Source of the DNA: a virus
DNA: 39,252 nt
IMG/VR virus record: IMGVR_UViG_3300045988_083504
Strand: one strand, 5' to 3'
Shown here piece after piece: positions 1,360 through 29,197 of the stretch (the stretch's first letter is position 1; each line of letters opens with the position of its first letter). A program made the translations under genes and the position numbers. The notes beneath the pieces are model-generated. The model did not search any database. It was not told where the DNA came from and saw only the letters and a list, made by a program, of their open reading frames with translations.

Positions 1360-1953
1360 TTAGCAGCCGCAACCGTGGCCACAGGTGGAGACGGGGAGGG
1401 GGTTATAGGTGGACTGGGGCGTGGTGCCGGTGCCGGTGGTGATGTCCGCGACCATTTTGGGATAAAAGGTGGCGTTGGTGTAGGTGACAATGGTGTTGTC
1501 AGCGCACTTCCGCTCGTCCCGCTCCCGGGAAATGGCCCCACACAGCTCGTTCTTGCAGCAGTCCACGCGCTCCTGCAACAGCTGGAAGCTGTCCTTGGTG
1601 GCCTGATTGTTGACCGCCTGAGAGGCCAGCACACCCTGCACCTCGCCCAGCTTGCCGTCGATGTACTTGTACATCTCCAGCATCTTCTGGTCCTGGTAGG
1701 TGTTGGCATCCCGCAGGGCAATGTCGCTGCGGAGTTTGGCGTTCTCCTGCACCATGGACAGCTCGTAGCGGTTGACCGTGTGGTTCTCGCTGCATCCGGC
1801 CTCCGCCGCCATACCAGCGGCAAAGGGGATGACGCGATTGCCCAGCAGCATCCCGCCGAGACCGCCCAGAGAGTTCAGGACGCCCAGAGACAGACCGGCA
1901 ATGCCGGTGCCGAGAGCAGTGCCTGCGACGCCCTTGCTTGCAAATTCAGCCAT
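1360..1953 (-). CDS. Membrane-associated coiled-coil protein with Gly-zipper N-terminus and C-terminal CGHGCGC, unknown function (197 aa)
   Basis: ATG 1951-1953 follows GGAGG. The N-terminus GVAGTALGTGIAGLSLGVLNSLGGLGGMLLG is Gly-zipper/TM-like. The centre has heptad-like repeats. The C-terminal residues are STCGHGCGC. Confidence 0.75.
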   Translation of the reverse strand: MAEFASKGVAGTALGTGIAGLSLGVLNSLGGLGGMLLGNRVIPFAAGMAAEAGCSENHTVNRYELSMVQENAKLRSDIALRDANTYQDQKMLEMYKYIDGKLGEVQGVLASQAVNNQATKDSFQLLQERVDCCKNELCGAISRERDERKCADNTIVTYTNATFYPKMVADITTGTGTTPQSTYNPLPVSTCGHGCGC

Positions 1954-1998
1954 AGAGAGATTCCTCCTTCTCTAAAAATACACCCCCTGTTTCCGCGC

Positions 1999-2047
1999 GC
2001 AAAACAAGCGGTGCTCTATGGTTACCGTACCACAGGACACCGCTTGT
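1999..2047 (-). terminator. Rho-independent terminator after the sigma-like gene
   Basis: 10-bp stem ACAAGCGGTG (2004-2013) / CACCGCTTGT (2038-2047). On the minus strand the hairpin is followed by TTTTG. Confidence 0.6.
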
Positions 2048-2053
2048 CATGGT

Positions 2054-2272
2054 TTAAGGATGGTTTTTGTTTGGGCGGGATATGCCAGCTTTATTCCGGA
2101 TGGAACGAAGGCATGCGGCCACAGCGGAGCGGGATAGGTACAGCTCTGCCGCCGCATCCTCGATTGCCCAGCCACGGCGGCAGACCAGGTTGAATACCCG
2201 CCGCTCCCGGTCTGTGAGGTAGCGGCAGCGCTCCATCTGCTGGAGCTGCTGGACGGTGTATCGGTATTTCAT
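2054..2272 (-). CDS. Small sigma-70 region-4 / LuxR-type HTH protein (72 aa), candidate late-gene regulator
   Basis: LTDRERRVFNLVCRRGWAIEDAAAELYLSRSAVAACLRSIRNK resembles a region 4.2 HTH. AAGGAGG RBS lies before ATG 2270-2272. Confidence 0.6.
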   Translation of the reverse strand: MKYRYTVQQLQQMERCRYLTDRERRVFNLVCRRGWAIEDAAAELYLSRSAVAACLRSIRNKAGISRPNKNHP

Positions 2273-2323
2273 ATTGGGCCTCCTTTACGAAGTGCCCCTC
2301 CCCCTTTAAGATTTCTATGAGCG

Positions 2324-2524
2324 TCAGCCGCCTTTCTCTTCCGCGATTCCCAGCAGCTTTACCAGGTCATAAAAGCACTGCGGGTCCAGCCCGGTCTCCC
2401 GGCGGATAACGGCGAACCGATAGCGAATGGAATTGGTGTGCAGATAGACGGCCTTGCTGGTTTGTGACCGGTTCATGTTGTTTTCCGCATATGCCTTTAG
2501 CAGGGCTTTGTCATCGTTTGTCAT
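2324..2524 (-). CDS. PucR-C-terminal-like HTH protein (66 aa)
   Basis: The internal ATG 2522-2524 has a GGGAGG RBS. VYLHTNSIRYRFAVIRRETGLD resembles the PucR-type HTH (recognised from memory). Confidence 0.5.
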   Translation of the reverse strand: MTNDDKALLKAYAENNMNRSQTSKAVYLHTNSIRYRFAVIRRETGLDPQCFYDLVKLLGIAEEKGG

Positions 2525-2864
2525 GATGCCTCCCATATGTCACTTTCCGCAGCTCGTGATACCGCTCCGGGAATGGAATCAAGGTCATACGATTCCGGAT
2601 GATCTCCGCCAAAATGCGATCCATGTGCTCCTGGCACACGTCAGCAGCTGGGTCCTTACAATTCAGTGCCGGTTTGTACTCGCGCTGGGTATCAATCCAG
2701 TCATGCGTCAAGCGCATGACCCGGTCATATCCCCACCCGTCCTTCTGGTGAATCGTGATCTGGAGAGTGTCTGTGGCAAACTGCAAGGCCATGGCAGCCC
2801 CGGCGTTGAACGCCGCATCCAGCTCCTCGTCCCGCCGCTTCAAATACCCGGACTGTTTAGCCAT
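2511..2864 (-). CDS. Hypothetical protein (117 aa)
   Basis: ATG 2862-2864 (MAKQSGYLKRRDEE...) overlaps the previous stop by 8 nt, the coupling pattern repeated through this operon. Confidence 0.6.
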   Translation of the reverse strand: MAKQSGYLKRRDEELDAAFNAGAAMALQFATDTLQITIHQKDGWGYDRVMRLTHDWIDTQREYKPALNCKDPAADVCQEHMDRILAEIIRNRMTLIPFPERYHELRKVTYGRHHDKR

Positions 2865-3117
2865 CCTTTCCGTCCTTTCTCTCGCCGTAGCTGCAATAAT
2901 CGTCCGGATGTTCACGGTCGAGATGGACTTCACACCATCCCGTTTTCGGTTTGTTGTATGACCGACAATCCTTGCACCGCGTCACGACCACGGCATCCAC
3001 GGTGGGGGCTTTTTCGATCAAGCCAAGTAAGCCGTTCCAACCAGCACAATACGCCGCAGGGAGAACATCTTTGCTGCACCGCCCTACGCCCAAATCATCA
3101 ACATCAACCAGCCTCAT
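2857..3117 (-). CDS. Hypothetical Cys-containing protein (86 aa)
   Basis: ATG 3115-3117 lies 8 nt after GGAGG. The upstream ATG at 3133-3135 lacks an RBS. Confidence 0.6.
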   Translation of the reverse strand: MRLVDVDDLGVGRCSKDVLPAAYCAGWNGLLGLIEKAPTVDAVVVTRCKDCRSYNKPKTGWCEVHLDREHPDDYCSYGERKDGKDG

Positions 3118-3403
3118 GGTCAGCACCTCCGTCATGCACCGTTGTGTATTTCCAAATCAGCGTGTTCAGTTTTCTCAGCCCCTCCATGGTGATTAGGTCC
3201 TGCTCGCACAGCTCGTCCCGCAGGCGTTCCAGTGCTTCAATTGGGGCCACGTCGGCGGTGGGGGCCACGCGAAGCAGTCCTGCCGCAATATCCAAGCCAT
3301 CACAACGCCCGACTAAATATTGGTTGCTCGCACTGTTATAATACCTGTTTCTGCTGTCAACAATCGCCTTAATCGTTGCTTCCCGCTTAATGTATTCAGC
3401 CAT
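3104..3403 (-). CDS. Hypothetical protein (99 aa)
   Basis: ATG 3401-3403 (MAEYIKREAT...) follows GGGAGGGG and overlaps the upstream stop by 8 nt. Confidence 0.6.
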   Translation of the reverse strand: MAEYIKREATIKAIVDSRNRYYNSASNQYLVGRCDGLDIAAGLLRVAPTADVAPIEALERLRDELCEQDLITMEGLRKLNTLIWKYTTVHDGGADHEAG

Positions 3404-3695
3404 CGTCAAAAATCCCCTCCCATACTTCTTCATAACCAGTCTTTTCGTAATCGATTTTCAGACGCTTTTCGCGGATCATGGCGTTCAGCGACCTGACACA
3501 CGGGCGTCCATACGAATTATCCTCACAATAGTCACACATACTGCCGAATCCACAGCACCCAAAAGAGCTACCACCATCTGCACTGTGCCGGTTGCTCCAT
3601 CTCTGGAAACCATTTTCCCACTTCCGTTTAGCTTTACCTGTGTTGTTACTTGATTGTTTCTCCGATGTGTCATATAACTGCATTTGGTCAGCCAT
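3396..3695 (-). CDS. Hypothetical Cys-rich protein (99 aa)
   Basis: ATG 3693-3695 follows GGAGGG. Contains a CCGFGSMCDYC cluster. Confidence 0.6.
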   Translation of the reverse strand: MADQMQLYDTSEKQSSNNTGKAKRKWENGFQRWSNRHSADGGSSFGCCGFGSMCDYCEDNSYGRPCVRSLNAMIREKRLKIDYEKTGYEEVWEGIFDDG

Positions 3696-3924
3696 TGTCA
3701 GCCCTCCTGTTCCATTTTTCAGCATACTCTCCCGGATAACCCGTTTCCGGATTTGCGTCTCCAGCCTCTAAAACAAAAGGCTGATTTATGTCGTTAAGGA
3801 CACAATCTGTATCATCGTGCATCCAGTATTGCTTAATGATGCGCTTCCCGAAACGATTCACATAGTTCTCCCGGTAAAAGTTCAGTTTACCGCCGCAGAA
3901 CGGGCACGGTTTTAAGTCATTCAT
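3688..3924 (-). CDS. lar: Lar-family restriction-alleviation-like zinc-ribbon protein (78 aa)
   Basis: N-terminus MNDLKPCPFCGGKL and C-terminal AEKWNRRA match the Lar-family pattern as I remember it. An RBS precedes ATG 3922-3924. Confidence 0.65.
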   Translation of the reverse strand: MNDLKPCPFCGGKLNFYRENYVNRFGKRIIKQYWMHDDTDCVLNDINQPFVLEAGDANPETGYPGEYAEKWNRRADNG

Positions 3925-3927
3925 CCT

Positions 3928-4158
3928 TCATCGCCTCCTCCACCGGCATCCGTTACAGGCCCCCTCATGGGCCAGCGTGTAGTTTCCGCATTTCAGGCAC
4001 AGTTCGTTCCGCAGGGCGTCAATCTCTTTCGTTTGCGCTTCGATCAAGTCAGCGGCTCCCGCCAGATCGTCGCCCAGCGTGATTGGCGTTTCCCACTCAT
4101 TTGCCCGCGCCCATTCTGCGTGCTCACGCAGCGCTTTTACGAGTTCTTGATCTTTCAT
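3928..4158 (-). CDS. Hypothetical protein with C-terminal CxxC...CxxC (76 aa)
   Basis: ATG 4156-4158 follows GAGGAGG. C-terminus is CLKCGNYTLAHEGACNGCRWRRR. Confidence 0.65.
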   Translation of the reverse strand: MKDQELVKALREHAEWARANEWETPITLGDDLAGAADLIEAQTKEIDALRNELCLKCGNYTLAHEGACNGCRWRRR

Positions 4159-5033
4159 ACATCCTCCTCAAATCCGTCTAATACTTCCTGCCCCGGCAGC
4201 ACGCCGTCCTCCATCCACCAATGAAATACGTCCACGCCGGATTGCCACTGGCACGACCGGCCTCGTTTTCTCCGCTCTTCCAGCATCCGATCAAAGGCAC
4301 GGATATACGCCGCCTTGATTCTCGGATAGCGGGCAAATTCCATGATTCTGGTTTTGGATGCCATGGGGCAGCCAATGCAGCCCACCCGGTGAAAACCCTC
4401 GCAGTACAGCGGGTTCATGGGAATTTTTTCAATAGCAGCATAATCCAGTGCCTCATTGCCCTTCCAGTCGATGATGGGGTTCACCACCCGTTTGCCTTTC
4501 ATCTGACAAGTCTCGAACAGTCTCCTGTCCTCATCGTTGTCGTTAGATAGGATCAGCTTATCTTTAGGCTTTGACGTCAATATCTCAAATTCCCCTCTGT
4601 TTTTCTGGCGAGTTTTGCTTTCTTCCCAGCGTACACCGGTGGCAATGAACCGTCCTTTCGCACCGCTCTCTTTCAGTTTCTCGCAACAGTAGCGCTTCAC
4701 TCTGGTTGGCGGCATCAGCTTCCGGGTAATCAGGTTCCACATGGTCACGCGGCTCCCGTCCGGCTGGACGTGCCGATCTACGGTGCACTTCACGCCCTTT
4801 TCTTCCAGCCGCCGGAACGTATCATACACATGGCGCACCGTCTCCGGCGCGTCCACCGTGGTGAGGGAGTGCAGGGCTTCAAACGGGATGCCGCTTTTCT
4901 CCGCCAGATGTAGCATCACGTCGCTGTCCTTTCCGCCGGAGTAGGTGATCACTAACGGTTTCTCAAAAAGCCGCAGGCTCATATCCGATGCCGCTTTCAG
5001 CCGCTCGATTGCGGTCTGCTCCAAGTCGCTCAT
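4155..5033 (-). CDS. PAPS-reductase / DndC-like PP-loop ATP-pyrophosphatase family protein (292 aa)
   Basis: PP-loop motif ITYSGGKDSDV near the N-terminus. C-terminal cysteine cluster YCEGFHRVGCIGCP. GGAGGG RBS. Confidence 0.85.
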   Translation of the reverse strand: MSDLEQTAIERLKAASDMSLRLFEKPLVITYSGGKDSDVMLHLAEKSGIPFEALHSLTTVDAPETVRHVYDTFRRLEEKGVKCTVDRHVQPDGSRVTMWNLITRKLMPPTRVKRYCCEKLKESGAKGRFIATGVRWEESKTRQKNRGEFEILTSKPKDKLILSNDNDEDRRLFETCQMKGKRVVNPIIDWKGNEALDYAAIEKIPMNPLYCEGFHRVGCIGCPMASKTRIMEFARYPRIKAAYIRAFDRMLEERRKRGRSCQWQSGVDVFHWWMEDGVLPGQEVLDGFEEDV

Positions 5034-8796: not shown

Positions 8797-9007
8797 TGGG
8801 CCCCTCCGTGTACAGAACCGGGATGCCGAGGGCATCGGCAAATAGGTCCATATCGTCACCGATCTTATCCAGCAGGTAATCCTTGAAGCAGGGCGGGCAG
8901 TACAGCTCGCCGTTCGGGAGTTGGAACATCCGGTCACAGTCATCCTCTGCGGCGGGGTTCATTGGATGGCCGCAGCGGGCACACACAGGATAGGTTTTTC
9001 TGGTCAT
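8783..9007 (-). CDS. Zinc-ribbon protein (74 aa)
   Basis: ATG 9005-9007 follows GGAGGGAG. Contains CARCG...CPPC. Confidence 0.6.
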   Translation of the reverse strand: MTRKTYPVCARCGHPMNPAAEDDCDRMFQLPNGELYCPPCFKDYLLDKIGDDMDLFADALGIPVLYTEGPNADI

Positions 9008-9192
9008 AGTTGGGTCTCCCTCCAGACACGGACCGCATGGGCGATGTCCGTATAGTTTTTGGTGCGGTAGCCGCAGGAATCGCATAGGACGAAGAAGCCA
9101 TCCGTGTTTCCCTGAGCGACCATGCGCTTGCCGCCGTACATCCCACAGCGGGGACAGGGCGGCAGCTCTTTCATTTGACGGCGGCGGCCCAT
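9004..9192 (-). CDS. Second Lar-like zinc-ribbon protein (62 aa)
   Basis: LPPCPRCG ... FFVLCDSCGYRT ... AVRVW follows the Lar-type layout. ATGA coupling to the upstream small ORF. Confidence 0.5.
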   Translation of the reverse strand: MGRRRQMKELPPCPRCGMYGGKRMVAQGNTDGFFVLCDSCGYRTKNYTDIAHAVRVWRETQL

Positions 9193-9419: not shown

Positions 9420-9635
9420 CTAAACCTCCCCAAAGTGGTAGCCCTGACGGCGGCCATCGTCGAAGGTGACGAGGAACCAGCGGTGCGGGCTGTTGATGTA
9501 AGTGATGGTGCCGGGCTTCAGGCGGGGATGGTCGTCCTCAATTTGGAACGGCCATGTTCCCCGGGTGCCCAGTGCCGGACGGTGGGGTGTTCCCGGGTCC
9601 TGGCGGCTGCGGGCGATGCTGTTGTAGCTGCTCAT
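9420..9635 (-). CDS. Hypothetical protein (71 aa)
   Basis: GGAGGC RBS and ATGA overlap with the upstream gene. Confidence 0.55.
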   Translation of the reverse strand: MSSYNSIARSRQDPGTPHRPALGTRGTWPFQIEDDHPRLKPGTITYINSPHRWFLVTFDDGRRQGYHFGEV

Positions 9636-9832
9636 TTTTTGCCTCCACAGAGTTGCCGGGCGAAGGTGGCGGCGGAGATGTAGCCGCCCTTCTGCAAAGG
9701 GAAATGGCGCTGAATGGTGCGCAGATCCTTCATGCCGGTAAATTTGCGGATGTCCGCCAGATTCAGAAGCTGCCGCCCGCCGGTAAAGGCAAGGATTTGT
9801 TCGAGATTGTCTCGATATGCTGGATGTTCCAT
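9632..9832 (-). CDS. Small putative DNA-binding (HTH) protein (66 aa)
   Basis: ATG 9830-9832 follows AAGGAGG. LLNLADIRKFTGMKDLRTIQRHF looks like an HTH. Confidence 0.5.
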   Translation of the reverse strand: MEHPAYRDNLEQILAFTGGRQLLNLADIRKFTGMKDLRTIQRHFPLQKGGYISAATFARQLCGGKK

Positions 9833-9924
9833 AGGGGCCTCCTTCTTTTGTTTTGTCGTGATTGCGATTGCTGCTGCGGCTTGCAATGCGTAGCTAACCT
9901 AAGCCGCCGTACTGCCGAGCTTAT

Positions 9925-10211
9925 CTATTCCATTCCGTTGCATTGCAGAACGGTGCTGTTCCATCGCCGTTCAAGGTTACACATCGCTCCGCGATTCCAT
10001 TGCATTTCCTTGCATCTCTTTGCATTGCCTTTGCTATGGTGTTCTCCGCTTTGCCGTTGCATCGCTGAACGATTCGCGGCCCTTCCATAGCGCCTCGATA
10101 CGATGCTATCCCGTCGCATTGATACTCTCTGCTAAGCTCTACCGCTGCTTCGCGCTGAGCTGCTACTCATTACCGTTGCGCCACATTGCTGTGCTACGCC
10201 ATTCCGCTGCG
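9925..10211. repeat. Degenerate iteron-like repeat array (non-coding)
   Basis: TTGCAT occurs at 10000, 10010 and 10020 (exact 10-bp phasing) and also at 9938 and 10057. CAT-N(1-2)-CCGTTGC-like units lie at 9931, 9962, 10054, 10168 and 10200. Two hairpin-capable 19-mers, 9935-9953 and 10054-10072, match at 16 of 19 positions. Confidence 0.85.
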
Positions 10212-10805
10212 TTACTGGATCTCCTCCCAGGTAAACCGGCCTTTTCCACTGTTGCGCCACTGGCCGATGCCGGAGAAGCGGCCATAGTCCAGCCATTCCC
10301 GGACAGCCTTTTCGTGATCGTCGCAGAGGCAGACCACCCGGAACTCGCAAGTAGCGCCTGCGGGGATCTCTTCACTCATGGCAAGGGAGATGCGCTCACC
10401 CTGCGCCGTCTGCGCTCTCAGGGGGCGCTGGCACTCACCAACGGGGCCGTCAAACTCCAACGGGATCACCCGGGGCTCCGGGAAGATCAGCTTATCGATC
10501 TCCTTCTTGTAAGCCTTGATCTTCTCGCTGGCCGTGCCCTTGACCTTGCGGAGACCGCCGCAGGTGTCCTTGAAAAAGCCTTTGATCTGGTAATCGTAGA
10601 GGAACGGGGTGCCGTCCTCCAGCCGAGGAAACACCGTCATGGCCTTTTCTGCCACGGCATCAGCGCCCAGCGCGGAGACTTCCTCTTCCACGGTGGCGGC
10701 ATCGGGGGACTTGGAGCCGATAAACTCCCGGTAGATTTCCGGGTTGGCGGGGGACGTGCCGAGGATGGGTTCGGTGAAGGTGAGTTTTACTTTCAGTTCT
10801 TTCAT
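10212..10805 (-). CDS. Hypothetical protein with RAMP / Cas7 (Csm3/Cmr4)-like motif layout (197 aa); the CDS is firm, the family assignment is tentative
   Basis: ATG 10803-10805 follows AGGAG. The blocks are KVKLTFTEPILGTSP, DGTPFLYDYQIKGFFKD and EEIPAGATCEFRVVCL, ending in the C-terminal Gly-rich loop YGRFSGIGQWRNSGKGRFTW. Confidence 0.5.
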   Translation of the reverse strand: MKELKVKLTFTEPILGTSPANPEIYREFIGSKSPDAATVEEEVSALGADAVAEKAMTVFPRLEDGTPFLYDYQIKGFFKDTCGGLRKVKGTASEKIKAYKKEIDKLIFPEPRVIPLEFDGPVGECQRPLRAQTAQGERISLAMSEEIPAGATCEFRVVCLCDDHEKAVREWLDYGRFSGIGQWRNSGKGRFTWEEIQ

Positions 10806-10878
10806 GTTGATTCTCCTTTTCGTGATTGCGTGTTGGTGTGAATTGGTGTAGGATTGGGGGTAAGGGGGGCGGATTGAA

Positions 10879-11193: not shown

Positions 11194-11450
11194 AAGACTT
11201 GCGCGGGCGTTCCTGTTTTGGTAAAATAAGTGCATCCCATTAGAAAGGGGGCGAGGCCTATCAAAGCGGCGCTTAAAGCGTTTGCCACGGCAGGCTTTTT
11301 GCCTCCCACGCCAGAACACCACCAAACCAGGTGGCGGCCGGTAGGTGGGGAAACGGAGCTGCAACCGTAAGGATGGCGCGTCAAGATAGAAGCAAGGCCA
11401 TTCCTTGCCTTAAATGAAGTCACACCAGACGCAGTTAAGTGCATTGACGC

Positions 11451-11509
11451 TTCTGGGAAAGTGCAGGGAGAATTATTCGTGGAATGGCCGCGAATAATTT
11501 TTCCCAGAA
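11451..11509. terminator. Composite long hairpin (bidirectional terminator or attenuator) just downstream of the cro-like gene
   Basis: Outer stem TTCTGGGAAA (11451-11460) / TTTCCCAGAA (11500-11509). Inner stem AATTATTCG (11471-11479) / CGAATAATT (11491-11499). A T-run lies on the plus side. Confidence 0.6.
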
Positions 11510-11525
11510 ATAGTTCGATTAAATC

Positions 11526-11726
11526 TTACTTTCTGGGTATAAAAATATTGTCCATGGGCACGCCGTAAAGATCGCAGAGGTTCAGCAACTTGTCCGCAGG
11601 GGGAAATCGCTTGCCGATCTCCCAATTATAAATCGTGCGGCTGCTGACTCCAATGGATCTTGCGGCGTCTGCCTGCTTCATTCCACGGTTTACGCGGGCG
11701 GCGCGGAGGGTAACTTGAAAGCTCAT
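11526..11726 (-). CDS. Cro-like XRE-family HTH regulator (66 aa)
   Basis: MSFQVTLRAARVNRGMKQADAARSIGVSSRTIYNWEIG is a classic XRE HTH. AAGGAG RBS. It is divergent from the CI-like gene. Confidence 0.8.
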   Translation of the reverse strand: MSFQVTLRAARVNRGMKQADAARSIGVSSRTIYNWEIGKRFPPADKLLNLCDLYGVPMDNIFIPRK

Positions 11727-11762: not shown

Positions 11763-11791
11763 ATAATACCACCGGCGAAAAGGGATGTCAA
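11763..11791 (-). promoter_or_regulatory. Sigma-70-type early (lytic) promoter
   Basis: On the minus strand: TTGACA (11786-11791), 17-bp spacer, TATTAT (11763-11768). Confidence 0.6.
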
Positions 11792-11823
11792 GCAAAAGGT
11801 TAGGTTAAAACGAAAAAAAGTTC

Positions 11824-11852
11824 TTGCAATTCGATTAAAAATGACTTACAAT
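11824..11852 (+). promoter_or_regulatory. Sigma-70-type promoter for the CI-like repressor
   Basis: TTGCAA (11824-11829), 17-bp spacer, TACAAT (11847-11852). It lies back to back with the lytic promoter. Confidence 0.55.
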
Positions 11853-11880
11853 GGATTTAACAAAAAAGGGGGTGAAACCA

Positions 11881-12228
11881 ATGGGGCAAGAAGAAATCTG
11901 TGCAGTTTTTGCGCGGAATCTAAATAAATTGATGGCTCGGGATAACCTGAAACAAAGCGATCTTGTATTAAAATTGAACGTATCGAAAGCCCAGGTATCA
12001 GACTGGTGCGCCGGGAAGAACATTCCCAGATCGAACTATCTGGCTTTGCTGGTAGACCTGTTCGGCTGCCAGCTTTCGGAACTCATGAGCGAAAAACAGC
12101 CCGCCCCCACGAATGAGGGCGAGCTGAACGCAGAAGATAAAAGGCTGCTTATGATGATCCACAATCTCTCACCGGAGGACCGGGAACGGATCGTTGCGAT
12201 AATAGAAGCTCTTGCAGGGCTTGAATAG
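11881..12228 (+). CDS. CI-like XRE-family repressor (115 aa)
   Basis: ATG 11881 follows AGGGGGTG. XRE HTH is NLNKLMARDNLKQSDLVLKLNVSKAQVSDWCAGKN, followed by a C-terminal extension. Confidence 0.8.
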   Translation: MGQEEICAVFARNLNKLMARDNLKQSDLVLKLNVSKAQVSDWCAGKNIPRSNYLALLVDLFGCQLSELMSEKQPAPTNEGELNAEDKRLLMMIHNLSPEDRERIVAIIEALAGLE

Positions 12229-12794: not shown

Positions 12795-12927
12795 ATAGAA
12801 AGCCGTCTGAGTGCTGGAACACTCAGACGGCAAACGATACCACCAATCGCAATCACGACAAAGCCAAAGGAGGATCAACCACAGTATAGCACGATCCCCC
12901 TGGCGATGCAACAGGAGGAAAGGAAAA

Positions 12928-14010
12928 ATGGCGAAGAAAAGTAAATATGGCGTCCGCAAGGACGGCCTGCACGAGGCGATCCGCACCATCAACGGCAAGC
13001 GGGTAGCGTTCCGTGGCAAGACAGATCGGGAAATTGATCGTAAAATCCTGGAATACCAGATGGAGGCGGAGAAGGGCCGGAATTTCCCGGCAATCGCTGA
13101 CGAGTGGGAGCGGGAGCATGAGAGCGACGTGTCCGAATCGACCCGTCGGGTATACAGCTATGCCGTGAAGCGGCTGAAAGAGGCGTTTCCGGGGCGGGCG
13201 TCGGAGATCGAGCCGGTAGACGTGCGGAACTATATCAAGCGCTTTGAGGCACAAGGACGCAGCGCAAATAGCGTCGGCATTGAGCTGGCGGTCTGCCGGA
13301 TGATTTTTGCCCATGCCGTCATCAAGGGCGATATTCGGATTAGTCCGGCGGCGGAGGTGAAAAAAAGTCGGGGCCTGCCCTGCAAAAAGCGGGAGGCGCT
13401 AACGGAGGAGCAGGAGGAGGCCGTGAAAGCGGCGGGGCTGACAAAGGCGGCGCGCTGGTGGCTGTTTGGCTATCTGTTGTTGTACACCGGATGCCGCCGG
13501 GGTGAGGCGCTGGCGCTGACGTACCGCGACATCGACCGAAAAGCCGGGGTCATCCACATCACCAAGAAGGTTAGCTACGCCACAGGTACACCGGTGTTGG
13601 AGAATCACCTAAAGTCGGAGAACGGTCTGCGGGACATTCCCCTGCTTCCGCCTCTGGCGGAGGCGCTGCCGAAAAACCGGATCGGGCTGCTGTTTCCGGG
13701 GGATGATGGAGGCTATATGCGGCCCCATGAGATCACAAGAGAGTGGCGGCATTACTGCCGGGATGTGGGGCTGAACGAGATCCAGCAGGGCGAAAACGGC
13801 GAGACGGTGGAGACGTTCCCCATCACGCCGCACTGTTTCCGGCACAGCTTTGCGACGATCTGCTATGAGGCGGGGCTTGACCCCAGACAGGCGGCTGGCT
13901 TGCTGGGCGATACGCCGGACGTGGTGGAGGCGGTTTATACCCATCTGCGGCAGGACCGGAGGCAGACGGCAGCCGAAAAGCTGACGGCGTATTTTGAAGC
14001 TGTAAAGTAA
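12928..14010 (+). CDS. int: Tyrosine-type site-specific integrase (360 aa)
   Basis: ATG 12928 follows GGAGGAAAGG. Catalytic signature is YTGCRRGEALAL (Arg), HCFRHSFAT (H-x-x-R) and LLGDT...AVYTH (Tyr). Confidence 0.95.
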   Translation: MAKKSKYGVRKDGLHEAIRTINGKRVAFRGKTDREIDRKILEYQMEAEKGRNFPAIADEWEREHESDVSESTRRVYSYAVKRLKEAFPGRASEIEPVDVRNYIKRFEAQGRSANSVGIELAVCRMIFAHAVIKGDIRISPAAEVKKSRGLPCKKREALTEEQEEAVKAAGLTKAARWWLFGYLLLYTGCRRGEALALTYRDIDRKAGVIHITKKVSYATGTPVLENHLKSENGLRDIPLLPPLAEALPKNRIGLLFPGDDGGYMRPHEITREWRHYCRDVGLNEIQQGENGETVETFPITPHCFRHSFATICYEAGLDPRQAAGLLGDTPDVVEAVYTHLRQDRRQTAAEKLTAYFEAVK

Positions 14011-26591: not shown

Positions 26592-28469
26592 GTGGCGATT
26601 GAGAAATTCAACAAAAATATGGCGATCATTGCGGCATTGGACGATGAACCCAATGACGTAGGCGGTATGACCTCCGCCGAGCTGAAAAACAAGTTCGACG
26701 AGGGCGGCAAGGCTATTCAGTCCTACATGAACGAGACCCTGATCCCGGCGCTGGAAAATCTGGGTGTGGAAACGGCGGTGCTGCTGCCGCAGAACGAAGC
26801 CGGGTTCAAGTACATCCGCCTGAACAGCGATAAGGTGCTGGAGGTCAGCACGGACGGCAAGGCCTGGCAGGCAACCGGTTCTTCCGGACACCTGATTATC
26901 GGCCCGGACGGACAGGCCCTCCCCCAGCGGAGCCGGATGCAGTTCACCAACGGCACGGTGACGGATCAGAACGGCGTGACCGTGGTCACCGGCATAAAAG
27001 GTGACAAGGGCGAAAAAGGCGACAAGGGCGATACCGGCGAGACCGGAGCCACCGGCGCACAGGGTCCGGTGGGACCCGCCATCGTCCCCAGCGTGGACAT
27101 TAACGGCGTCATGTCCTTCTCCCTGCAAAATGTAACGTCCCCGCCCCAGAGCGTGAATGTGCGCGGCCCCCAAGGCCCGCAGGGCGTACAGGGTGAGCAG
27201 GGCGCACAGGGCGCAAGAGGCCCGCAGGGTATCCAGGGCGTGGCCGGTGCGCAGGGGCCCAAAGGAGACCAGGGTGAGACCGGTCCTGCCGGTCCTACCG
27301 GCCCGCAGGGGCCGACCGGATTGCAGGGCGTTCAGGGTATTCAGGGCGAGACCGGCCCCAAAGGCGCACCCGGCGACAAGGGTGAAACCGGACCCGCAGG
27401 CCCCCAAGGCCCCACCGGCGCACAAGGCCCAACCGGCGCTCCCGGCAAGGACGGAACCAGCCTCTACATTGAGGACGTCTATCCCACTCTGGCGGCGCTG
27501 CGAAAAGCTATCCCCACCGGCAACGAGAAGATGTACATGGTGGAGGCGGACAAGGAGTGCTATATCTGGTCCGAGCTTGCTTCAGACTGGGTAAGCGTTG
27601 GCAAGCTGCAAGGCCCGGAAGGCCCGCAAGGCCCCGCCGGTGCACAGGGCATCCAAGGCCCCAAGGGCGAAAAGGGCGACAAGGGTGACATTGGCCCACA
27701 GGGCGAGCAGGGCATCCAAGGCCCCACCGGTCCCCAGGGTGAGACGGGTGCCAAGGGCGCGACGGGTCCCCAGGGTCCGCAGGGTATCCAGGGCGTACAG
27801 GGTCCCCAGGGCGACGTTGGCCCGGAAGGCCCGCAAGGCCCCGCCGGTGTGAAGGGCACGGACGGCAAGAGCGCGTATCAGACCGCCGTGGAAGCCGGTT
27901 ATTCCGGCACGGAGACGGCGTTCAACACGGCGCTGAAAGAGGTGCCGGGGCATATCGCCAACGATGACATCCACGTGACCGCTGAACAGAAAACCGCGTG
28001 GAACGGCAAGGCGGCGGGGAAACACGCCAGCCAGCATAAGACCGGGGGCAGTGACCCCATTACACCGGGGGACATCGGAGCCATTGCATCTACGGCAAAG
28101 GGCACGGCGGACGGCGTGGCGTCTCTGGGCGCGGACGGCAAGGTGCCTGCAAGCCAGCTGCCGGAAATTTCCTCCGTCAAGACCTACACCGCCACCATCG
28201 GCACCACATGGACGGAGGACAGAAACACCGGCGTCAAGACGCAGAGCGTTGCCATCGCCGGTGTCAAGGCCACCAACACCGCCACGGTAGACCACGTTTA
28301 CACGGGGGCCGGGACCTCCGACGATTACGCGGCCTTCGTGGAGGCGGAGAACCAGTATCTCAACTGTATCACCAACGGCTACGCCGAAACCTACAACGGC
28401 GGCATCAAGTTTACGATCTTCGGGGATGCCAACACGGTTGCGATCCCCATTGTTGCGGAGGTGAGCTGA
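26592..28469 (+). CDS. Collagen-like tail fibre protein (625 aa, GTG start)
   Basis: GGAGGTG lies before GTG 26592. Three Gly-X-Y blocks occur at about aa 135-163, 192-288 and 341-424. Confidence 0.85.
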
Positions 28470-29197
28470 TGGGCCGGGTAACAGTGGTTGGCGGGTGCAG
28501 AGCGAAAGCACCGTCAACCGGCATTTTGGCAAGCACTTTGCCGGTGGGGTCTATAGTCAAACTCATGGAAAACGGCACGGCGGTCGAGTATCTGGTGGTT
28601 AATCAAGGTATTCCCAGTAATTCCGACCTGTATGATGCAAGCTGTAATGGGACGTGGCTGCTGCGGAAGGATATTCACAGCAACCGGCAGTGGAACACCA
28701 GCAACGTAAACAAGTATGAAAGCAGCGCTATTAACACTTGGCTGAATGGGGACTTTTTCAATAGTTTAGGAAGCGTGGAGCAAGCAACCATCAAGCAGGT
28801 AAAGATTCCATATCGGGCTGGCGGCTCCGGCGGCACTGACCAGAGCGGAGCAAATGGCCTGTCCTGCAAGGTGTTCCTGCTGTCCGGTTACGAGGTCGGT
28901 TGGACGACCAACTACAACCAGTATTTCCCACAGGAAGGCGCAAGGCTGTCCTACTTTGAGGCTGGGACCGGCACGACCGCCAACAACAAGCGTATTGCGA
29001 ACCTGAACGGCACGGCCGCCAGCTGGTGGCTCCGCTCCCCGTACACCAGCCGCACCGACTACGTGTGGCTCGTCCACTCCGGCGGCGACTACGACTACGG
29101 CGGCGCATCCTACCCAGGCGGCGTCCGCCCCGCTTTGGTTCTTCCCAGCAATGCACTATTTGATAAAACCACCATGCTCTTAAAGGGGGTGGCATAA
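28469..29197 (+). CDS. Receptor-binding-type tail protein, DUF6273-like, paralog 1 (242 aa)
   Basis: ATG 28469 overlaps the fibre stop (TGATG). SWWLRSP and GVRPALVLPSNALF motifs are present. It is a paralog of 29667-30395. Confidence 0.7.
   Translation: MGRVTVVGGCRAKAPSTGILASTLPVGSIVKLMENGTAVEYLVVNQGIPSNSDLYDASCNGTWLLRKDIHSNRQWNTSNVNKYESSAINTWLNGDFFNSLGSVEQATIKQVKIPYRAGGSGGTDQSGANGLSCKVFLLSGYEVGWTTNYNQYFPQEGARLSYFEAGTGTTANNKRIANLNGTAASWWLRSPYTSRTDYVWLVHSGGDYDYGGASYPGGVRPALVLPSNALFDKTTMLLKGVA

Follow-up and report, generated by a model that had tools for sequence, protein, structure and literature searches.

A Vipr-like RAMP gene running into a same-strand pentanucleotide array: a probable VIPR locus in a temperate phage of Oscillospiraceae

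The IMG/VR virus record IMGVR_UViG_3300045988_083504, a stretch of 39,252 nucleotides (nt) that was analysed as a whole and is called the window below, is a temperate phage of Oscillospiraceae. We investigated a minus-strand gene of this phage and the repeat array that begins directly behind its stop codon. Together they very probably constitute a VIPR (Viral Interference Programmable Repeat) locus, a kind of system already described in 2026 preprints. As presented in the first of these (bioRxiv 10.64898/2026.04.26.720920), VIPR systems are mostly phage-borne; their protein, Vipr, is a RAMP of ~20 kDa branching before Cas5, Cas6 and Cas7, and their vrRNAs carry 9-16 (at most 30) pentanucleotide repeats in which GGY is conserved and NN is hypervariable. 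The repeat is given there as YNNGG, with NNNGG, YNNNG and NNNNG as alternatives; arrays lie upstream and/or downstream of vipr, and stand-alone vipr genes are reported too. Double-stranded DNA is described as the target of the complex, which skips one target base in each unit and silences competing phages and satellites, and the same logic is reported across all seven VIPR types (10.64898/2026.04.26.720920). The locus in the window comprises the following features:

10212..10805, minus strand: vipr, predicted gene for a 197-residue single-RRM RAMP (open reading frame and translation, AlphaFold2, Foldseek, profile comparisons)
10813..10818, minus strand: ribosome-binding site AAGGAG, 7 nt ahead of the ATG (direct sequence reading)
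9942..10211, minus strand: variable portion of the vrRNA-type array, made up of ~10 blocks, each having 4-6 pentads G-C-N-N-N and a closing 6-nt GGnAnn (autocorrelation, position matrix, segmentation)
9851..9941, minus strand: 3'-terminal segment of the array, kept among close relatives and possibly a tail (alignment of 8 arrays)

The first-pass annotation, made from the letters of this DNA alone, had likened the product of 10212-10805 to Cas7-group RAMPs on the basis of four peptide blocks, all of which are present in the translation. As a single query, the 197-residue protein found no match in Pfam, PHROGs, PADLOC, NCBIfam or the PDB sequences, and neither the Pfam RAMP models nor the PADLOC cas models matched it. 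By contrast, a family profile of 90 representatives matched PDB sequences of type VII Cas7 (E=1.8e-5) and Csm4 (E=5.5e-4), the match running through the last strand (E-x-h-P-x-G...F) and the glycine-rich loop. AlphaFold2, supplied with an 88-row alignment, gave a model with a predicted local distance difference test score of 92.4 and a predicted template-modelling (TM) score of 0.87. It consists of an RRM core with beta1, an alpha-helical bundle at residues ~22-54, helix-1, a thumb beta-hairpin at 123-147 and a G-loop at 179-190, which reads GIGQWRNSGKGR. When this model was compared with the PDB by Foldseek, 162 matches were obtained at E<=1e-3, and the best 50 of the 162 are all Cas7-group RAMPs (type VII Cas7, Csm3, Cmr4 and Cas7-11). 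They align over the full length at TM ~0.55-0.58, as exemplified by 8z4j_J (E=5.9e-8, TM 0.57) and 6xn3_F (E=1.3e-7), with sequence identities of 9-16%. The Cas7/RAMP assignment thus withstood both checks that had been proposed for it, the structural one outright and the profile one once a family profile took the place of the single sequence. The RAMP link is visible only through the family profile and structure. An RRM core, a thumb hairpin and a glycine-rich loop are the features in common with Cas7-group RAMPs (type VII Cas7 8z4j and 8yhd; Csm3 6xn3 and 6ifn; Cmr4 6s6b; Cas7-11), and polymerisation along a guide RNA may, by analogy, be another.

The same annotation had called the protein an orphan, a description that does not hold. 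A word-indexed search with this one query yielded at least 8,000 clusters at 90% identity, and an exhaustive search at E<=1e-3 yielded at least 1,796 clusters at 50% identity. The metagenomic family is therefore much larger than the 2,664 Vipr sequences that the preprint collected from NCBI NR (10.64898/2026.04.26.720920). The best match in a viral structure library is the BFVD entry A0A8S5R426 (Siphoviridae sp. ctcMb1), which is 66% identical. This entry carries the UniProt name 'Cas system-associated RAMP superfamily protein', indicating that the RAMP nature had already been flagged automatically in the public record. Two separate 50%-identity clusters hold tandem Vipr-Vipr fusions, proteins of 458 and 432 residues, and each half of both has its own LGT, QRP(I/L) and GxGQWRxSG blocks. 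Such fusions recall the origin of Cas7-11 from fused Cas7 units.

Next, we compared the family with a characterised Vipr. Escherichia phage SUSP1 and a Pseudomonas fulva prophage are the type II examples given in the preprints (10.64898/2026.04.26.720920; 10.64898/2026.04.26.720927). The second of these describes cryo-electron microscopy structures with one protomer per repeat and a binary filament of six subunits per turn; in SUSP1 Vipr G1 is read by H17 and D177 and G2 by R138 and W178, with R179 included in the Y3 pocket (10.64898/2026.04.26.720927). We located SUSP1 vipr at 28474-29061 on the minus strand of NC_028808.2, flanked by ~450 and ~530 nt of GGYNN repeats, and residue counting on its product confirmed H17 and D177-W178-R179. 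Alignment of an 88-sequence family profile to SUSP1 Vipr by hhalign gave a probability of 82% and E=1e-5 over 172 aligned columns, spanning the full length. The G-loops fall in register, GIGQWRNSGKGRF against GVGDWRP-RFGRF of SUSP1, and by this alignment W183 and R184 correspond to SUSP1 W178 and R179. Judged by profile alignment and predicted fold, the 197-residue protein is a small RAMP with one RRM and a homologue of SUSP1 Vipr, which has been characterised.

The array lies immediately downstream of the gene. The stop codon TAA occupies 10214-10212 and the first repeat unit, CGCAGCGGAATGG, begins at 10211, so that the claim of a stop codon abutting the array is confirmed to the base; the non-coding stretch extends from there to the next open reading frame (ORF), whose ATG is at 9832. 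Autocorrelation of the array reaches 0.44 for a lag of 5 and 0.52 for a lag of 31. Pooled arrays of relatives peak at lags 5, 10/11, 15/16, 20/21, 26, 31 and 36, and a coding control sequence has a 3-nt period only. We scored periodicity in 200-nt windows as the autocorrelation at lags 5, 26, 31 and 36 minus background. Over the whole 39 kb this score has a mean of -0.003 with a standard deviation of 0.025 and a peak of 0.22, and it exceeds 0.08 only in windows starting at 9801-10101. The lag-31 autocorrelation and the lone peak of the score indicate that the 31-nt repeat unit is real and not due to chance. Of the whole array, Tandem Repeats Finder picks up just a fragment of 10 nt.

A position matrix from 28 diverse arrays, anchored on their commonest 7-mer, GCAAYGG, resolves the unit. 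G occupies every fifth base at 83-94% and is followed by C at 48-65% (A being the main alternative) and by three poorly conserved bases. About once in six units a 6-nt unit occurs, giving a super-unit [GCAAY][GGMANN][GCNNN]x4 of 31 nt, and the punctuation motif GCAAYGGMA accordingly recurs about every 31 nt. The array in the window segments into ~11 such blocks. What had been noticed as degenerate repeats on a ~30-bp scale is thus a unit of 31 nt with six sub-units of ~5 nt. Base composition of the transcribed strand, taken over 59 non-redundant relatives, is A 0.31, G 0.33, C 0.21 and T 0.15, or 64% purine. The repeats had also been called hairpin-capable, which the array does not bear out: its RNA folds no more stably than shuffled sequences (z=+0.2), and the 3' segment has no significant predicted structure. 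An Rfam search of the array returned no family match, hammerhead ribozymes included. Two ORFs of 55 and 64 residues lie wholly within the array (9921-10119, minus strand), and they are probably artefacts of repeat composition and not genes. Positions 10248-10260, which hold the vipr codons for QWRNS of the G-loop, are identical in 12 of 13 bases to the array unit at 10172-10184, possibly by chance.

The junction between stop codon and array recurs in nearly all of 80 close viral loci (77-100% identity), with arrays of 300-1000 nt. To these we added a genome set of 57 contigs at 49-98% identity, whose hosts are mainly metagenome-assembled genomes (MAGs) of Oscillospiraceae, Ruminococcaceae and Lachnospiraceae. 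The nearest relative in it comes from a Dysosmobacter MAG (98% identity), and the relatives are mostly Clostridia prophages of the human and animal gut. Arrays were sought in 55 diverse loci, namely 53 genome contigs and two phage records. A periodic array touches the gene in 53 of the 55, most often on its downstream side; some loci have it upstream, and some have arrays on both sides. Orientation is equally regular, with 136 of 140 arrays on the strand of the gene and none of the 140 on the opposite one. Co-occurrence of gene and array among homologs, which had been put forward as a check, is therefore borne out, and same-strand pairing of the RAMP gene with a long pentanucleotide array is conserved. 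Within the vipr clade the arrays are continuous and 220-1150 nt long.

Two distant phages extend this pattern. The AT-rich phage MT835477 carries a 53%-identical homologue with its array upstream of the gene and the same periodicity. The gene preceding that array (1474-3507) encodes a 677-residue protein resembling, by eye, an SMC/Rad50-type coiled-coil ATPase. Hydrogenobaculum phage 1 (NC_028651), an Aquificae phage with a thermophilic host, encodes a homologue, gp16, of only 30% identity. Its gp16 gene is followed at 3898-4618 by ~700 nt of purine-rich, C-poor sequence, and a weaker periodic stretch with the 5/26/31/36 lags lies at 4316-4618, ~480 nt downstream of gp16. A small annotated gene, gp15 (4146-4316), sits inside this purine-rich region and may not be a real gene.

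Arrays of closely related phages differ in a patterned way. Where proteins are 95-98% identical, the phages have in common the opening block of the array and its final ~90 nt, and the interiors differ by gain, loss and replacement of cassettes. In homologous cassettes the substitution rate is 6.5% at the G of the unit, 15% at the C and 18-23% at the three variable bases, so that the G is constrained 3 to 3.6 times more than the N positions. The scaffold thus stays constant and the information that it carries changes fast. When arrays were compared, the phases at which exact matches ended revealed no unit boundary, being blurred by point mutations, and clean indels between arrays were few (n=20) and only loosely block-sized.

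These properties align the locus with VIPR in several respects: a ~20-kDa single-RRM RAMP with G-loop, thumb and helical bundle; carriage by a phage, without a CRISPR array; same-strand intergenic pentanucleotide arrays with a fixed G/Y scaffold and hypervariable positions; and arrays that flank the gene on either side or on both. There are also differences. The repeat of this clade is N-G-(C/A)-N-N, corresponding to the YNNNG alternative, and not GGY-NN. SUSP1 arrays keep a clean period of 5, whereas arrays here shift by +1 per ~six units, giving the 31-nt super-period with its GCAAYGGMA punctuation. Type II vrRNAs are each reported to end in an invariant structured 3' tail (10.64898/2026.04.26.720920); here no hairpin or pseudoknot tail is seen after each guide, and a single conserved ~90-nt 3' segment ends the whole array, with the recurring GCAAYGGMA motif in place of such tails. 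Finally, the arrays of the clade are continuous and long, and no conserved vap gene accompanies them, an adjacent vap accessory gene being described as typical of VIPR and not strictly defining (10.64898/2026.04.26.720920).

By analogy with SUSP1 and P. fulva, the array would be transcribed together with vipr from the early promoter, and Vipr protomers would coat its RNA, one per pentad, as a helical filament. Each protomer would bury the conserved G and the C that follows it and display the variable bases. Through gapped pairing, the resulting ribonucleoprotein would bind double-stranded DNA of a rival element, be it a prophage, a phage or a satellite, and silence it. The extra base and the GCAAYGGMA motif found every ~six units may mark guide boundaries or nucleation sites.

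Several points weigh against a VIPR locus. The VIPR concept itself rests on two preprints without peer review, and the hhalign probability that ties the family to SUSP1 Vipr is only the value given above. Both readers of the first G are replaced, SUSP1 D177 by Q182 and H17 by about T17, in an alignment of modest confidence, and the SUSP1 thumb residue R138 aligns to no arginine in the family. Among the neighbours of diverse loci there is no conserved vap gene. Searches for targets were empty as well. Windows of 12 units, evaluated under six pairing rules in a 2-Mb database of mostly kin phages, gave no excess over reversed decoys. Exact spaced seeds of 4-8 units under skip-0 to skip-3 and NNN rules were not enriched over reversed or shuffled guides in the same database, and two exact xNN patterns of 11-12 units had 0 matches in IMG/VR. 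These searches were small and covered near-exact or exact patterns only, and their outcome neither supports nor refutes the VIPR model. Replacement of the first-G readers implies that the decoding rule may differ from that of SUSP1, and it would fit an array that conserves one G.

Some of these points would also suit a Vipr-type ribonucleoprotein with another role, be it RNA targeting, regulation of early transcripts of the phage itself or one very long filament that is not a guide. No target emerged under any pairing rule tried, each unit conserves one G with the SUSP1 first-G readers replaced, there is no accessory gene, and arrays reach ~1 kb, far beyond the repeat number reported per vrRNA. 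However, rapid turnover of cassettes on a fixed scaffold is predicted by a programmable guide and not by an autoregulatory site, the target search was small and demanded near-exact matches, and the preprint gives the same logic for every type. We therefore regard such a role as unlikely. The first-pass annotation had offered three guesses, of which an uncharacterised RNA-binding module came closest. Its favoured guess, a Cas7 look-alike and/or repeat RNA serving as decoys that poison host type III or type I complexes, draws on a fold that is truly Cas7-like and on a phage-borne gene in an early operon. It is very improbable nonetheless: 5-nt units are unlike a CRISPR repeat-spacer layout and the window holds no CRISPR-like array, the same array design recurs across very different hosts, including that of the Aquificae phage, hypervariable cassettes would be senseless in a decoy, and SUSP1 Vipr, the homologue that has been characterised, itself acts as an RNA-guided DNA-binding effector, directed against competing phages and satellites.

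The remaining guess was a replication origin, with the protein as initiator and the repeats as the double-stranded iterons that it would bind. Location in an early region near an exonuclease, SSB and a helicase-loader-like gene is compatible with an origin, as is a 31-bp unit of about three helical turns, and no clear initiator is annotated in the window. The protein, however, has a RAMP fold with a G-loop, not a winged helix, HUH or AAA+ domain, and is homologous to an RNA-binding Vipr. The array keeps a strict orientation relative to the gene, its sense strand is purine-biased, and just one base in five is fixed. Moreover, iterons evolve in step with their initiator, but the array interior has been exchanged among phages whose proteins are 95-98% identical. 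An origin thus has hardly any likelihood, and a VIPR locus remains the reading that we prefer.

Three further candidates, a CsrA-sponge RNA with many GGA motifs, an RNA wrapped in the manner of TRAP, and DNA phasing with 31 bp as three turns, were abandoned when the homology to Vipr had become clear. On RNA, TRAP and other proteins that form rings or helices recognise short triplets at a spacing of 5-6 nt. The likeness to TRAP lies in a protein oligomer whose subunits each engage one short motif, ~5 nt from the next, on an unstructured RNA; the folds are unrelated, and TRAP has no programmable variable positions. Compared with class 1 CRISPR-Cas, the RNA period is 5 nt in the array here and 6 there, no repeat-spacer array is present, and no Cas5, Cas6, Cas10, Cas11 or Cas1/2 was found among ~20 window ORFs scanned.

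Within the VIPR reading, we ask whether this gut-phage clade, which is very abundant, represents a distinct architecture not set out in the preprint texts, with a single-G code N-G-M-N-N, 31-nt cassettes of six units plus one base, arrays to ~1 kb and no accessory protein. This is possible, and we put it forward only tentatively. Such a combination implies that decoding or guide excision may not follow the SUSP1 type: GCAAYGGMA might be where mini-guides are released, for instance, or each of the three variable bases might be read. One turn of the Vipr filament comprises six protomers, in agreement with the 31-nt unit, and this agreement may be meaningful or accidental.

VIPR has been proposed as the ancestor, viral in origin, of the RAMP proteins of CRISPR and as a new and very compact form of RNA-programmed DNA recognition. 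The locus in the window illustrates that tool-free reading of raw sequence can single out a VIPR system. Two features of its clade are testable handles: the lone conserved G, with the replacement of the G-reading residues, bears on repeat recognition by the protein, and the 31-nt punctuation bears on the partition of long arrays into guides. If targets could be decoded, the arrays would also be a record of competition among gut phages.

The locus has these genomic surroundings:

12811-14010: integrase gene
11851-12228: CI-like gene
11763..11791, minus strand: early promoter-like site TTGACA-17-TATTAT (11/12 matches, TG extension)
11526..11726, minus strand: cro-like XRE helix-turn-helix gene, first of the minus-strand early operon (PHROG transcriptional regulator matches)
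9632..9832, minus strand: 66-residue ORF directly after the array (no Pfam or PHROG match)

The cro-like gene is followed in the minus-strand operon by vipr, the array, a Lar-like gene, an exonuclease, a phrog_10048 protein, SSB and a helicase-loader-like gene, and it is the upstream neighbour of vipr in 65 loci. Its longest ORF starts with TTG at 11795 and contains the -35/-10 pair (11791-11763). Because the promoter-like pair falls inside this longer ORF, the start of the cro-like gene is probably the ATG at 11726. As read from its sequence, the promoter-like site is a strong one and would yield a single transcript spanning the cro-like gene, vipr and the array. A terminator-like site was sought on the minus strand from 10212 to 9833, and none was found between vipr and the array. 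The 66-residue ORF follows the array in only 17 close loci and is not a conserved partner; no conserved vap accessory gene was found, and no neighbour family is common to diverse loci. The first-pass annotation had stated that the genome holds no other cas gene and no CRISPR array. The second part stands, with neither a CRISPR-like array nor a second RAMP gene in the window, and the first is upheld for ~20 window ORFs, among which no cas gene was matched, the remaining ORFs not having been screened.

Other genes of the window include the following:

9004-9192, minus strand: Lar-like restriction-alleviation gene, early region
4155-5033, minus strand: PAPS-reductase-like gene, early region
26592-28469, plus strand: gene for a 625-residue protein with collagen triple-helix repeats, among structural genes

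In addition, Rfam gave a full-length but sub-threshold match to FuFi-1 RNA on the plus strand at 11333-11503 (47.5 bits against a gathering threshold of 59.6; E=2.4e-8). This FuFi-1-like match is antisense to the early operon and falls in the interval that separates vipr from the cro-like gene.

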